Both the position numbers and the translations under genes were made by a program. DNA of 64,000 nt. Source: a plasmid. Where the stretch lies: NCBI RefSeq assembly GCF_054482525.1, contig NZ_JBTHVG010000004.1; one strand, written 5' to 3'. The notes below the pieces were generated by a model, which had not been told where the DNA came from, did no database searches, and saw nothing but the letters and a program-made list of their open reading frames with translations. Of the stretch, positions 15,947 to 64,000 are shown in pieces (positions within the stretch are counted from its first letter, which is position 1; each line of letters begins with the position of its first letter).

Positions 15947-17155
15947 TCAGAATTCGTTGTCTGTAGCAGGTGTGCGGGGCAGGATGTCGTCGGTGAGGGA
16001 CCAGTTGGTCAGGATGCGGCGTTTCCGGTCGCGATCTGGTTGTGGTTCATCCCAGATAAGACCGAGACTGAGCATATCCCGCCGTAAGCCTTCCACCGCT
16101 TCATCAACACAGGGTTCAGGGCAGGGAAGACCAAAACGCATGGCTTCGGCCTCTGCACGTGCAACGGCCACCACGCCAGCGCCTTCAATAAATCCTTTCG
16201 TGGTATTGGCGCGGTGTAATGCATAAAACAGCGTTCTGTCCACGCCTTTCAGCCAAATCCAGTTGGGTGGCGTAAGCCGCAGGTCATGTGCATACAGCCA
16301 GACCAGCCCACTGCGGACGTAGCGATGTTGTTTCAGCCATTGCTGTGCTCCGTTGCTTTTAATCACTCTCTGGAAAGCTGATTTGGCCAGTGAATAAACA
16401 GGGGTACAGAATTTCCCGCTGTCCCGTTTGCTTTTAATTCTGCATGAGAGGTTCAGTGTATCCATGAGCTTTAATGCTGCCTTCCGATCATCCAGGAAAT
16501 ACTGAAGGCCAAATATGGCAAAGAGCGCTTTTTCATGTGGTGCCATGTCTTTCCAGGACGTTAAAGGTTTACCCAACTGGGCCATGAAACATCGTCTTGC
16601 AGCTGCAACATCGAGCTGCATATTGGTGATGAGAGTATGCTGTTCGACAAATGCTTCCGGGGTGAGAGCAACCCGCCGTTCAGGTCGTTTACCACCATGA
16701 AAGAGTTTTTTCGGATCACCATCTGCCAGTACAGGGGCGATAGCAGGGGATAACGAAGCAAAGATGTGTGGCAGTCGGGTAATATCTACTGGTCTGCGGG
16801 TGAAACGGCTTTGTCCCGGATGTTGATACCATTCCCACAAACACCAGAGTGTCACAGGTAAGAGGTACATCCACAGAATACCTATGGTCTGTTCCATGAC
16901 GTTAACCCACTGGCTATAGCTTATGTTGGCGGCGTTGTTACCGGTCATGGCAAGCAGGTTGTATCGTGGTGCTGCATAGTTATGAAATGGTCCCCAGTCG
17001 ACCAGTCCCCATAAGGTATGAAGAATCAGGCAGCTGGTGTAAACCACTTCCGGCAAGAATAACCATATGACGAATAGCAGCAGGATAAGAAGGACACCAA
17101 CAGCGCCCCATATCTGCATAGGATCTTCTGCGACAGGCTGTCGATTGTAAGACAT
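15947..17155 (-). CDS. trbA: TrbA (DotM/IcmP-like inner-membrane protein)
   Basis: 402 aa with N-terminal transmembrane helices. It is the first gene of the trbABC operon, as in R64. Confidence 0.85.
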   Translation of the reverse strand: MSYNRQPVAEDPMQIWGAVGVLLILLLFVIWLFLPEVVYTSCLILHTLWGLVDWGPFHNYAAPRYNLLAMTGNNAANISYSQWVNVMEQTIGILWMYLLPVTLWCLWEWYQHPGQSRFTRRPVDITRLPHIFASLSPAIAPVLADGDPKKLFHGGKRPERRVALTPEAFVEQHTLITNMQLDVAAARRCFMAQLGKPLTSWKDMAPHEKALFAIFGLQYFLDDRKAALKLMDTLNLSCRIKSKRDSGKFCTPVYSLAKSAFQRVIKSNGAQQWLKQHRYVRSGLVWLYAHDLRLTPPNWIWLKGVDRTLFYALHRANTTKGFIEGAGVVAVARAEAEAMRFGLPCPEPCVDEAVEGLRRDMLSLGLIWDEPQPDRDRKRRILTNWSLTDDILPRTPATDNEF

Positions 17156-17248: not shown

Positions 17249-17419
17249 ATAAAAGGATTGTTGCAGATACGAAAGTCGTTAGAATAGCCGCGGACGCTTG
17301 AGGCTGTATGCCGAAAGCGTTTTGTGGATGGTATACAGCAGAAAGCCCCCTGGAGATTTTTTATCAATCAACCAGGGGCTCTACTGTAATGCCTAGACAA
17401 CATTATAGTAGCCTGATAA
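17249..17419 (+). repeat. Duplicated, truncated copy of the pnd promoter/leader
   Basis: 171 bp matching 18670-18840, with 8 substitutions and two 1-nt indels by hand alignment. It includes TTGTTG-16 bp-TAGAAT (17258-17285) and the first 10 pndC-like codons, then diverges. Confidence 0.85.
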
Positions 17420-17461
17420 TTTAGATATGTGTACATCCTACCGGAAAAGATACTTTTCAGG

Positions 17462-18553
17462 TCATTTATCAATGGGTGTTATTACCACCGGTAGTTTGTT
17501 TACGTCTTCTAAATTAACTGGTACCGGAGGTAACCATATTAATCTAGGTTTACGCTCATGGGCTAGTTCTGGTTTCTTACTTCCTGTCCAGTATGTATGC
17601 CAGTGTCCCCGGCGTATATGAGGACGTTTGCTACCTATTGTTGTCCGCTCTTTCCCTGTGGGTTCTGCTTGGCGATATTGCCGTATGGCTTGCCCCATTC
17701 GAATACCAACGTCCCACTCCCGAATGTTTTGTGCTGGTAGTTCATGGTGAGTGTGAACATGCTTTTTGTGCTTTTCTGACCGTTTAAATTGATTTTTTTC
17801 TTTTATATCATTGATCTGTGAACAGATATAAAGCACCATTGATATCTGTGCGTTAAGAAGATTAAACTCCCTGTCTCTGAAATCTTTGAGCTTTTCGTTA
17901 ACTGTTACGACGACTTCACCATCGATACACTCCATCTTTCTGGAGTCAAGAAGTCCTTCACGAGAGTCCTTTATTCTGATGATATTATTGACGACGTCAA
18001 CATCCTTTTCTTTTAGCCCTGTAGTTCCTTGACTTTGTTTCAGATCATCAATAATGAAAAGCCGGATAATATTTCCATTATTGTCCAAAAATGGATAAAA
18101 GAAAAATCCATGTATCGGATAGGACGTAGGAAGTATAGTATGCAGATTTTCGGCTGAAACATAGATACTCCATGAAGGGAGTTCCTTGAGGATCTGTGCA
18201 GGAATGTTATCAACATAGGTGTTAGCCACATCACTGATGATGTCCTCGCTTAGGCGATAAATTTTCTTTGTATAGCGCCAGTATATAAAACACAAAATAC
18301 TGTGTGGTGACGATAATTCGTTTCCATGAAATAAAGATTCTAGTTTAGAAGCCAGTTCTTCATTTTTTTGTTGGCTCTGGAGACGACTCATTAGTATGCG
18401 TTCTTCATCTTTTCTGTCGATAAATAATAATGGATTGTCGCTGCGTTTTTTATTTCGGCATGCAAAGATTTGCTCTTCAAGCCCAGGGATTGTGTTGATG
18501 ACTTTTTTTATCTTTTTCAGGAAAATAGGTTGTTTTAACTGCGACATTTCCAT
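17462..18553 (-). CDS. Orphan AT-rich protein (363 aa), unknown function
   Basis: Long ORF in a visibly AT-rich insert between the two pnd-leader copies. The C-terminus is basic and His-rich, with the motif RPHIRRGHWHTYWTG. No family recognised. Confidence 0.7.
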   Translation of the reverse strand: MEMSQLKQPIFLKKIKKVINTIPGLEEQIFACRNKKRSDNPLLFIDRKDEERILMSRLQSQQKNEELASKLESLFHGNELSSPHSILCFIYWRYTKKIYRLSEDIISDVANTYVDNIPAQILKELPSWSIYVSAENLHTILPTSYPIHGFFFYPFLDNNGNIIRLFIIDDLKQSQGTTGLKEKDVDVVNNIIRIKDSREGLLDSRKMECIDGEVVVTVNEKLKDFRDREFNLLNAQISMVLYICSQINDIKEKNQFKRSEKHKKHVHTHHELPAQNIREWDVGIRMGQAIRQYRQAEPTGKERTTIGSKRPHIRRGHWHTYWTGSKKPELAHERKPRLIWLPPVPVNLEDVNKLPVVITPIDK

Positions 18554-18669
18554 CTCCTAAGGGGATTCTTTTATTAACTAAAATCAGCATAACATGCGTT
18601 GTTGTGAAGTAGAGAACCATGTATTGGGTTGGTTGTTAACTTCAAAAACAACGCTGAATCATTCAAATA

Positions 18670-18840
18670 ATAAAAGGATTGTTACAGATACGAAAGTCGT
18701 TAGAATAGCTGCGGGCGCTTGAGGCTGTATGCCGAAAGCGTTTTGTGGACGGTATACAGCAGAAAGCCCCTGGAGATTTTTTTATCAATCAACCAAGGGC
18801 TCTACTGTAATGCCTCAACAACATTATAGTAGCCCGATAA
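18670..18840 (+). repeat. pnd promoter/leader (intact copy)
   Basis: The partner of 17249-17419. It continues into pndC and pndA. Confidence 0.85.
18760..18820 (-). ncRNA. pndB: PndB (Sok-like) antisense RNA, approximate limits
   Basis: Minus-strand TTGCCT-17 bp-TACTAT (-10 at 18826-18831), antisense to the pndC start. A terminator-like stem (agcccttgg/ccaggggct) lies downstream. The limits are inferred by analogy with hok/sok. Confidence 0.5.
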
Positions 18841-19013
18841 CCGCCGGAAGGCAATGGAGGGGCTATGATGCCACAGCGAACGTTTTTAATGATGTTAATC
18901 GTCGTCTGTGTGACGATTCTGTGTTTTGTCTGGATGGTGAGGGATTCGCTTTGCGGACTCCGGCTCCAGCAGGGAAACACAGTGCTTGTGGCAACGTTAG
19001 CCTACGAAGTTAA
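18810..19013 (+). CDS. pndC: PndC (Mok-like overlapping reading frame)
   Basis: The ATG at 18810 opens a frame that overlaps pndA, as in hok/mok-type loci. Confidence 0.6.
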   Translation: MPQQHYSSPITAGRQWRGYDATANVFNDVNRRLCDDSVFCLDGEGFALRTPAPAGKHSACGNVSLRS

Positions 19014-19020
19014 ACGTTAA
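18868..19020 (+). CDS. pndA: PndA, Hok-family type I toxin (50 aa)
   Basis: MPQRTFLMMLIVVCVTILCFVWMVRDSLCGLRLQQGNTVLVATLAYEVKR is recognised as PndA/Hok family. It is too short to appear in the ORF track. Confidence 0.9.
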   Translation: MPQRTFLMMLIVVCVTILCFVWMVRDSLCGLRLQQGNTVLVATLAYEVKR

Positions 19021-19030
19021 CGGGCAACAC

Positions 19031-19051
19031 GGCGGCAGGTTTTCTGCCGCC
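19031..19051 (+). terminator. pnd terminator hairpin
   Basis: ggcggcag-gtttt-ctgccgcc stem-loop 11 nt after the pndA stop. Confidence 0.6.
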
Positions 19052-19091
19052 GCTTTGTTGCGAAGGCTGACCTCATTGCGCCCTTTCTTCT

Positions 19092-19343: not shown

Positions 19344-19496
19344 CGGATTTTCTCTCTGTATTTATGGGTAGTTATCGAACTGAATGTGCCAGTTTTTTCA
19401 GGAGACGGCAAAGTTGAGATGATTGGTTCTGATTCAAAGCATGAGTTTCCCCGGTGTGACGGGCATGTCGGGCGGATTTTGAGAAACAACAGATGT

Positions 19497-19527
19497 AAAA
19501 AAACCGACTGGTGAGGTCGGTTTTTTT
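19497..19527. terminator. Bidirectional rho-independent terminator
   Basis: aaaaaaa-ccgac-tggtgag-gtcgg-ttttttt. It has a U-tract when read on either strand. Confidence 0.85.
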
Positions 19528-19583
19528 ACTGTTCCGTTACAGAGTGGGTGGCTCTGGTCGGAAAAGAACTGTCTATAACTGAC
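19497..19583 (-). ncRNA. Predicted AgrB/IstR-like antitoxin sRNA (~85 nt)
   Basis: A minus-strand promoter (TTGCAG 19618-19613, 17-bp spacer, TACTAT 19595-19590) places the transcription start near 19583. The first 32 nt are complementary to 19740-19771 (31 Watson-Crick pairs plus 1 G-U). It ends at the terminator at 19497-19527. Confidence 0.6.
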
Positions 19584-19739
19584 TTGTAGATAGTACGTCT
19601 GGAATTATATTTCTGCAAGTACTGGATAAGTGTATACTCGGCATGTCAGCTCTGAGGCATGTTCTGTCCGACATATTGTTCAGCGGGAAGAACAGGTTGC
19701 AAGTCCTGGCCAAAACATCAGGTGGTGCTGGTTTTGGTG

Positions 19740-19771
19740 CTCTGGTCGGAGAAGAACTGTCTATAACTGAC
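19740..19771 (+). promoter_or_regulatory. Predicted sRNA target box in the toxin mRNA leader
   Basis: Direct repeat of 19552-19583 (31/32 identical), 73 nt upstream of the small ORF's ATG. Confidence 0.6.
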
Positions 19772-62913: not shown

Positions 62914-63232
62914 CTAAAAACGCTATCACTGAGTTCCTACGCTCATTGGTGATAGCCCAGACGGGGGTAGGAATACCGGCGTCATCGGAAACCGGCCAGG
63001 CTAATGCCTGCCCCGCCTGAGCTACCATAGATGACGACAAGAAATACAAGTTCCTGTCTTTATGGTATGGCAAAAAACGACGCCAAATGAAGAAATTAAC
63101 TTCTGCGCCGACGATGACTACGCGGGTTCCTACGCCCGATCACAGTTTTGCCTGTGACCAGTAAAGGGTACTTAGTATAACGCACCGAGTCAACTAACAG
63201 CTTAAAAAACATACAAAAAAGCGTCAAAACTT

Positions 63233-63700: not shown

Positions 63701-63892
63701 GTTGTAATGCTTTTCAAATTAACGTAAAGCGGGTATATTTCGGCTGTTATTAGCTGTGCAGAGGGTGGCACTCTGTGGAGCAAAGCGGCGAAAGTCGGAC
63801 GGCAGAATGCGCCATAAGGCATTCAGGAGAGATGGCATGTACGGGCAGTAAGTCAGAAGACTGAAGATGTTCCGGAAGCCATAAAAGGAAAA

Positions 63893-63943
63893 CCCCCACT
63901 ATCTTTCTTACGAACTTGGCGGAACGACGAAAGATAGTGGGGG
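63893..63943 (-). terminator. Strong hairpin terminator (candidate CIS terminator of the rep operon)
   Basis: Perfect 15-bp stem, cccccactatctttc / gaaagatagtggggg. In minus sense it is followed by ttttcctttt. Confidence 0.6.
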
Positions 63944-64000
63944 CCTCACAGAATACGGGTAAAGTATAATGAAACCGTACCAGAGATTCAACCCTGTGCA

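Follow-up and report, generated by a model that had tools for sequence, protein, structure and literature searches.

Plasmids of the IncI1 complex are known to differ in the DNA between the transfer gene trbA and the pnd killer locus. A 1,250-bp FinQ insertion has been described that follows a 173-bp intergenic sequence of R64, and this sequence is itself duplicated (RD1 in PMC8004404); likewise, PMC2887853, citing the IncI1 plasmid multilocus sequence typing scheme, relates that the trbA–pndC length varies via insertion of finQ in the 5′ end of pndC. FinQ has been named a homologue of AcrVA2 and linked to lowered messenger RNA (mRNA) of the F tra genes (Marino et al., bioRxiv 10.1101/2022.11.29.518452). 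Killing by hok/sok is triggered when the 5′ tail of Sok, 11 nt that make the first contact with a loop of the refolded mRNA, is sequestered (PMC1635323). Here we analysed one 64,000-nt stretch of DNA from the transfer region of an IncI1 plasmid (the window, whose positions serve as coordinates throughout), in which two copies of the pnd promoter/leader enclose a foreign segment carrying finQ. The structure is the documented finQ insertion polymorphism of the trbA–pndC region of the IncI1 complex and is, as such, already known. For the upstream leader copy we favour, with a probability of roughly 75%, the explanation that it is a recombining, largely unconstrained relic of that insertion in the pnd locus.

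The insertion accounts for the length variants of the IncI1 trbA–pndC typing locus, and also for the gap of unannotated DNA around finQ in RefSeq.

Two copies of the pnd leader enclose finQ

A repeat search found one two-copy family of direct repeats at this place (17249–17419 and 18670–18840; 171 nt, 92% ungapped identity, spacing 1421). Gapped alignment of the two leader copies gave 8 substitutions and two 1-nt indels (94% identity), with the similarity breaking off sharply at both the left and the right end. A match of 171 nt at 94% identity inside 1.6 kb is well beyond chance. These coordinates and counts agree exactly with those of a first-pass annotation of this DNA, which had described a duplication of the leader around an inserted, oppositely oriented gene; the repeat, the alignment and the minus-strand open reading frame (ORF) all bear this description out, and the three inter-copy substitutions that it had placed within ctactgtaatgcct..gataa are there. 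The order in the window is trbA – insert – pndCA (Table 1).

The insert has a GC content of 36–46%, against about 50% in its flanks. It contains no transposase or recombinase gene, finQ being its sole ORF of size, and no terminal inverted repeats, the best match (12/30) being about what is expected by chance. Over the 2.5 kb around the insertion, many plasmids of the IncI1 complex, from E. coli, Salmonella and Shigella, are 100% identical to the window. Since the annotation in those identical records reads trbA / finQ / Hok-Gef, the insert gene, which had gone unrecognised in the first-pass annotation, is by sequence the well-known finQ, the classical inhibitor of the fertility of F-like plasmids.

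Downstream of the insert, the leader continues into intact pndC and pndA, as previously annotated, and further on reaches the fbi-like 3′ element, which argues that post-segregational killing is preserved. The unit 18670–19083 has the Hok/Gef ORF and the RF01794 leader of a hok/sok-type system and, at the sequence level, also a mok-like frame, an antisense gene with its terminator, and tac–fbi complementarity. The predicted PndB of this intact locus folds at −23.9 kcal/mol (z=−4.6), with the ends of the RNA placed according to where promoter and terminator lie and on the model of Sok, which has 64 nt (PMC1635323).

Table 1. Features of the trbA–pnd region, in window coordinates.
Feature	Position	Strand	Remarks
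trbA (DotM-like protein of IncI1 conjugal transfer), backbone flank on the left	15947–17155	−	ORF; PF23127 DotM_C, E=1.6e-49; annotated as trbA in identical plasmid records
Upstream truncated pnd promoter/leader copy	17249–17419	+	171 nt; direct repeat; RF01794, 84.6 bits at 17292–17449
Upstream pnd promoter	17258–17285	+	TTGTTG (17258–17263), 16-nt spacer, TAGAAT (17280–17285); 8/12 to consensus
Candidate orphan PndB′ unit	17343–17433	−	TACACA 17433–17428 (insert DNA), 17-nt spacer, TACTAT 17410–17405, ~62 nt, terminator-like hairpin
Upstream antisense-target hairpin	17381–17411	+	stem CTACTGTAATG/CATTATAGTAG, 9-nt loop CCTAGACAA (17392–17400); Rfam structure line
AT-rich insert (finQ cassette)	17420–18669		1,250 bp; not in the empty-site plasmids L002, L009–L011, R64 and ColIb-P9
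finQ, fertility-inhibition protein, AcrVA2 family	17462–18547 (ORF to 18553)	−	361 aa from ATG at 18547; full frame 363 aa
Terminator-like hairpin with T-rich tail, opposite finQ start	18552–18566	+	consensus scan only
Downstream pnd promoter/leader copy	18670–18840	+	repeat search; RF01794, 132.8 bits at 18713–18870 (gathering score 59)
Downstream pnd promoter	18679–18706	+	TTGTTA (18679–18684), 16-nt spacer, TAGAAT (18701–18706); 9/12, passes promoter scan
PndB unit	18764–18854	−	−35 TTGCCT 18854–18849, 17-nt spacer, −10 TACTAT 18831–18826, ~62 nt with terminator hairpin
Downstream target hairpin	18802–18832	+	loop CCTCAACAA (18813–18821)
pndC	18810–19013	+	ATG at 18810; reading frame overlapping pndA
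pndA, Hok/Gef toxin	18865–19020	+	PF01848, E=2.9e-12; annotated Hok/Gef family protein
fbi-like 3′ element GACCTCATTGCGCCC	19069–19083	+	complementary to downstream leader 5′ end GGGCGCTTGAGG (fuzzy reverse-complement search)

The site between trbA and pnd exists in three states

The layout with finQ and two leader copies occurs in 387 of 1,954 matching plasmid records. The empty state, with one leader and no insert, is that of R64 (for which RefSeq NC_005014 was used), ColIb-P9 and most others, among them the comparison loci L002 and L009–L011. The comparison with R64 and ColIb-P9, which the first-pass annotation had suggested, thus finds a single leader and no insert in both, and the arrangement is no invariant backbone feature of IncI1 plasmids. 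A different cassette of 1.3 kb occupies the site in 104 records, and the three states together mark a variable spot.

The alternative cassette (L003, 1814–3331, and L004, 1814–3117) carries a minus-strand gene for a protein of 317 aa, with a FitA-like ribbon-helix-helix domain at the N terminus. It resembles the finQ cassette in its position between trbA and pnd, in the strand of its gene and, in L003, in the partial leader repeat that follows it, but it has other junctions and takes the place of the leader's first 83 nt, pnd promoter included. Two leaders come after the cassette in L003, first a partial one that belongs to another hok subtype, then a complete one. Recombination between these two repeats, with loss of the DNA between them, gave rise to L004, which shows that leader repeats at this site do recombine. 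Judged from its sequence, pnd in the L004 form, with promoter and first 83 leader nucleotides replaced, may be silenced or under other control.

In some IncI plasmids there is a third remnant of a hok-type leader, more diverged than the others (RF01794, 67.5 bits; L007 3298–3439, L018, and L003 3118–3199). This remnant lies downstream of pnd, and the window is without it. The region is pieced together from fragments of hok leaders, and these can serve as portable homology.

The upstream copy is far more variable than its neighbours

We compared 14 finQ+ plasmids, a small and partly clonal sample. Variable columns made up 23 of 173 in the upstream copy (13.3%; π 0.0455; 8 haplotypes), 2 of 171 in the downstream copy (2 haplotypes), 14 of 1,092 in finQ and 1 of 158 in the non-coding flanks of the insert. 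Polymorphism in the upstream copy is thus about tenfold that of the downstream copy (Fisher's exact test on variable columns, p=1e-5; p=2e-6 against the insert flanks). Variability so far above that of the neighbouring sequences argues against strong selection on most of the upstream copy.

Some of the excess has a template, in that entire blocks of the upstream copy, like each of its three loop alleles (CCTAGA, CCTCAA and CATGAA), match alleles present in functional pnd loci. Another part is private and consists of point mutations and indels in L014, L024, L025 and L028. The upstream copy of the L007 type is the window's downstream copy save for two end sites, which requires either exchange between the copies, or excision of the cassette and its re-integration through the repeat. 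Taken as sequence patterns, these findings fit an upstream copy that is mostly unconstrained and that still exchanges sequence with functional leaders.

Parts kept and lost in the upstream copy

Read from its sequence, the upstream copy is a truncated leftover. It no longer has the −35 native to PndB, the greater part of pndC, any of pndA or the fbi partner on the 3′ side, and its match to RF01794, although above the gathering score, truly aligns at only about model positions 1–126. No Hok/Gef ORF belongs to the unit 17249–17419. Its pndC′ frame (ATG CCT AGA CAA ... ATT TAG; 17389–17424, ORF 17308–17424) has 11 sense codons before unrelated DNA takes over, close to the 10 or so codons annotated before, and a fuzzy reverse-complement search of the insert found no fbi-like match. 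The rightward pnd promoter hexamers are kept in both copies, in line with the first-pass annotation; that of the upstream copy was read from the sequence, since the threshold of the promoter scan lies one above its 8/12. The upstream mRNA would start at about 17292, where the Rfam model begins. The target hairpin, which contains the pndC′ start codon (17389–17391), is kept in the RNA fold.

For the leftward antisense promoter, the earlier description stands only in part. The −10 TACTAT is present in both copies, but the −35 of PndB lies outside the 171-nt repeat, so that the promoter was not wholly duplicated. The insert supplies TACACA at the same 17-nt spacing, and the resulting hybrid promoter, TACACA-17-TACTAT, therefore scores like the native TTGCCT-17-TACTAT (8/12 in both cases). 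The corresponding candidate PndB′ (17343–17405, minus strand) folds at −22.3 kcal/mol (z=−3.2) and retains the 3′ hairpin. On the plus strand, the consensus scan predicted no terminator between 17420 and 18552, and a transcript from the upstream pnd promoter would therefore run antisense through finQ, until the hairpin at 18552–18566, which could end it. From these signals it is plausible that the upstream copy is transcribed in both directions, into a rightward RNA that converges on finQ as its antisense and a leftward one that resembles PndB; the first-pass annotation had proposed both, and the sequence is compatible with them.

Loop alleles of the target hairpin

The 9-nt loop of the target hairpin, which encodes pndC codons 2–3, is the most variable spot of the otherwise conserved leader. 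We counted its alleles in the plasmid collection as exact matches of allele-specific 63-mers that include the functional right flank. Three alleles are common in functional pnd loci, namely CCTAGA (441 records), CCTCAA (359) and CTTCGA (575, including R64 and ColIb-P9). CATGAA is functional in IncK2/Z plasmids, CATCGA and CGTGAA occur too, and the pattern N-U-N-R is kept in all loop alleles. By analogy of position, the loop would be the site of first contact with the antisense RNA, and an antisense start placed about 7 nt after TACTAT puts the complement of the loop in the 5′ tail of PndB. The polymorphism, including the differing loops of paired copies, is possibly new. It conflicts with the identical pndB sequences that a plasmid-curing study reported for 125 IncI1 plasmids (PMC5330492), unless pndB is defined more narrowly there. 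The existence of three common alleles matters for plasmid-curing strategies that supply a single PndB.

We then tabulated the loops of both copies in 18 finQ+ plasmids (given as upstream/downstream). CCTAGA/CCTCAA occurs in the window, L001 and L021–L024, CATGAA/CCTCAA in L008 and L038, CCTCAA/CTTCGA in L007, L018, L026, L027 and L042, CCTAGA/CTTCGA in L014, L025 (where the upstream loop reads CCTAGAA) and L028, and CATGAA/CTTCGA in L035 and L037. The loops thus differ between the copies in 18 of 18 plasmids; five of the six combinations are present, and the missing one is the identical pair, CCTCAA/CCTCAA. With about 1.9 such plasmids expected, non-independence among the plasmids and an underpowered test, this gap is not significant, and we take it as suggestive without claiming that identical loops are avoided.

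A single ancestral event is the likely origin

Where a finQ+ sequence with both copies was examined (17 plasmids, one of them the window, and a contig of E. ruysiae), the two junctions were always the same. All of these sequences also have an A at 18684 and a T at 17414, two variants close to the insert that are absent from the sampled empty sites. The finQ+ plasmids carry at least seven different TrbA protein accessions. The shared junctions across these plasmids point to one ancestral event followed by spread through recombination, and the middle of the leader copies is mosaic among them.

We propose that the 1,250-bp foreign, AT-rich segment with finQ entered pnd after codon 10 of pndC in one illegitimate event, which would have left 171 bp with the pnd promoter and leader on either side of the insert, probably through a switch guided by microhomology between two GATAA motifs. 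These motifs bound the duplicated segment (GTGTGATAAAAGG ... CCYGATAA), a layout that fits a microhomology-guided template switch or an illegitimate joint. Homologous recombination would then have spread the arrangement to many IncI backbones.

No product of precise excision, that is, a single leader with upstream-specific variants, was found in a spread sample of single-leader plasmids, which were at most 95.9% identical to the upstream copy; excision by a crossover near the left end would be invisible in this comparison.

The A at 18684 changes the −35 of the downstream promoter. This hexamer is TTGTTA in every finQ+ plasmid and TTGTTG (17263) in the upstream copy and in the empty sites. The same A is also present in L003, where the leader likewise follows an insert; it goes back either to a common origin or to an up-mutation that recurred once the sequence upstream had become different.

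The diverged relatives of finQ have a different setting. Homologues at 64–87% protein identity, from Serratia and metagenomes, match the window only across 18609–17458, and none of those inspected (Serratia pE36_2 and metagenome contigs L029–L032) has a hok/sok leader nearby. From this we conclude that finQ travels alone and that the leader copies belong to the IncI backbone. Because these loci lie in other gene neighbourhoods and lack the leader, they are uninformative on how the duplication arose. In Serratia pE36_2 (L006, 3339–5830) and in L029, the closest of its settings outside IncI, finQ lies directly 3′ of a DUF2913 gene and 5′ of a 220-aa gene, in an operon-like order; of this context, the IncI cassette keeps only finQ and 56 nt upstream.

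Three human gut metagenome contigs (L015–L017) were considered as a new context of the upstream junction and rejected, being relics bounded by insertion sequences (IS). They hold the upstream leader copy from 17286 on, together with 30 nt of the finQ cassette, between IS elements on another replicon, and the relic is cut by IS1 at the equivalent of window position 17449.

Alternative explanations

Several observations weigh against an unconstrained relic that arose by local duplication. Over its first ~40 nt, the promoter region, the upstream copy shows no variation among any of the IncI copies sampled, the main upstream haplotypes keep the target hairpin with its N-U-N-R loop pattern, and a T-to-C change in L005/L008 converts a G·U pair into G-C. 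Together with the fact that the two copies share no loop allele in any of the 18 plasmids, the invariant promoter and the kept hairpin leave room, as far as sequence can tell, for a function. The diversity estimates come from 14 partly clonal sequences. As to the origin, the mechanism is inferred, from a microhomology of just 4–5 nt and with no donor context found. In addition, the left end of the repeat lies within about 3 nt of the place where the pnd modules of IncF, IncK2/Z and L003 lose their mutual similarity, a coincidence that would also fit the arrival of finQ with a whole second pnd module.

On another reading, the upstream copy would be a working orphan RNA module, producing a PndB-like antisense RNA and/or a truncated, always-open target RNA with a loop unlike that of the resident pnd. 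Such a module could neutralise the killer mRNA of rival IncI-complex plasmids with a matching loop, as an anti-addiction device, and a lasting difference between the loops would let the decoy spare the plasmid's own antitoxin. In support, the hybrid antisense promoter equals the native one at 8/12, both hairpins, of the antisense terminator and of the target, are still there, and the loop is at the position at which the Sok-type 5′ tail makes first contact, sequestration of this tail being the trigger of killing (PMC1635323). Among functional loci, moreover, the loop alleles are frequent and in balance (441, 359 and 575 records, with CATGAA in IncK2/Z), and all follow N-U-N-R; roughly one in three functional pnd loci has CCTAGA, the upstream allele of the window; and, with the copies differing in 18 of 18 finQ+ plasmids, only the homoallelic combination is missing of six. 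However, this gap is not significant, given about 1.9 expected and the non-independence of the plasmids. Private mutations and indels fall within the putative antisense body and terminator (L014, L024, L025 and L028), L005/L008 weaken the −10 to TACTGT, and the overall diversity is about ten times that of the functional copy. Expression of the upstream copy is predicted at the level of sequence, and the idea that loop differences alter specificity is argued by analogy. We therefore consider a working module unlikely. Its most specific form, in which the loop is a specificity code of non-cross-reacting IncI killer classes, and the upstream leader an expressed unit of a second class that disarms rivals while its loop is kept unlike the plasmid's own, is doubtful in a similar degree. 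If it were true, finQ and the orphan unit would make the trbA–pnd spacer a small island of plasmid competition, in which the differently coded second leader fragment of finQ+ plasmids might act as an extra antitoxin or decoy.

The coincidence at the left end bears on a different possibility, which we judge improbable, namely that no local duplication took place and that finQ came joined to a complete second pnd module. The downstream copy would then be the immigrant, an illegitimate joint GATAA|TTTAG would have truncated the resident pnd, and a homologous crossover in or beyond pnd would have completed the replacement. In four unrelated contexts, the similarity of pnd modules indeed has its natural left limit at the left boundary of the repeat, AAAAGGATTGT; a boundary just upstream of the −35, however, would equally result from selection for a complete promoter. 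The downstream copy has its private −35 variant TTGTTA, shared only with L003, and the Hok variant WP_001387489 occurs, among the plasmids sampled, only in those with finQ. On the other hand, the downstream pnd is 98.8% identical to that of empty-site plasmids, no more divergent than ordinary backbone variation, no replicon was found with finQ beside a pnd module but without the truncated copy, and all diverged finQ loci lack hok/sok leaders.

Finally, that the repeat is the target-site duplication of a transposable element, or an assembly artefact, is ruled out in spite of the foreign base composition of the insert and the direct repeats that bound it, because 171 bp is an order of magnitude above known target-site duplications (2–14 bp and identical, for IS elements and transposons), the copies differ at 10 positions, IS ends, terminal inverted repeats and transposase or recombinase genes are missing from the insert, as the first-pass annotation had in large part already argued, and the identical layout recurs in 387 independently sequenced plasmids as well as in metagenome contigs.

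A recombining, largely unconstrained relic of the finQ insertion thus remains the explanation that we prefer.

FinQ and its family

The frame of finQ is open for 363 codons, and an AGGAG lies 6 nt ahead of the ATG at the third codon. On this spacing, together with the match to 361-aa homologues and to the length given in the literature, the third-codon ATG is likely to be the true start of FinQ. The RefSeq product of the NCBI annotation pipeline PGAP has 259 aa (780 nt), and about 100 N-terminal residues are absent from the common annotation of finQ. Insertions of ISEcp1-blaCMY into finQ are already well known.

FinQ homologues carry PF26125 (AcrVA2-like; precomputed domain assignment). A search against the Protein Data Bank (PDB) aligned FinQ with AcrVA2 of 7CI1 (E=3.8e-17), with KRPHIRRGHWH conserved and PHIRRGHWH matching residue for residue. 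FinQ accordingly is a member of the FinQ/AcrVA2 family, its C-terminal HxRxxH motif included. Searches with local Pfam, NCBIfam and PADLOC gave nothing useful for the family, and the link came from PF26125 and the PDB search. By analogy, FinQ may lower F-plasmid tra mRNA by an AcrVA2-like route, an idea already put forward by Marino et al.

Other elements in the window

A second type I toxin-antitoxin unit lies just downstream of pnd. It has an AgrB-like antisense RNA (19495–19582, minus strand; RF02891, 53.7 bits) and a DinQ-like toxin gene, with dqlB in the public annotation. Its 33-nt direct repeats (19551–19583 and 19739–19771) are, to judge from the sequence, probably the segment by which antisense and target pair in this DinQ/AgrB-like unit. 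Near the right end of the window, a C4-type antisense RNA (62945–63032, minus strand; RF01695, 77.5 bits) marks a phage-P1-like immunity element, and the repZ regulatory pseudoknot (63885–64000, plus strand; RF01087, 144.9 bits), which is cut by the window end, marks the IncI replicon.

Comparison with known systems

The arrangement in the window is the same thing as the finQ insertion of PMC8004404 and PMC2887853, with a duplicated leader of about 171–173 bp and R64 as the empty state, and we see no structural difference. The parts retained by the upstream copy, its variability and the loop alleles are matters that those reports do not discuss.

FinQ shares the region of the C-terminal HxRxxH motif with AcrVA2 (7CI1) but has diverged in the N-terminal, target-recognition part. 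The targets differ as well, AcrVA2 being directed at Cas12a, whose mRNA it lowers in a translation-dependent manner, and FinQ at F-plasmid transfer, by a mechanism that is putative.

Orphan antitoxins can serve as anti-addiction modules, an example being chromosomal ccd against the ccd of F. The upstream copy resembles them in that it is an antitoxin-only copy beside no toxin, which could in principle neutralise a competitor's related killer system. It differs in that the antitoxin would be an RNA, its expression and cross-reactivity are putative, and the copy shows signs of relaxed constraint.

Related systems are also the type I toxin-antitoxin locus hok/sok of R1 and its homologue pnd of R483/R64. 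Every part of these is present in the downstream unit of the window, whereas the upstream unit consists of the promoter-proximal 171 nt only, with no toxin, no fbi and a foreign antisense −35.

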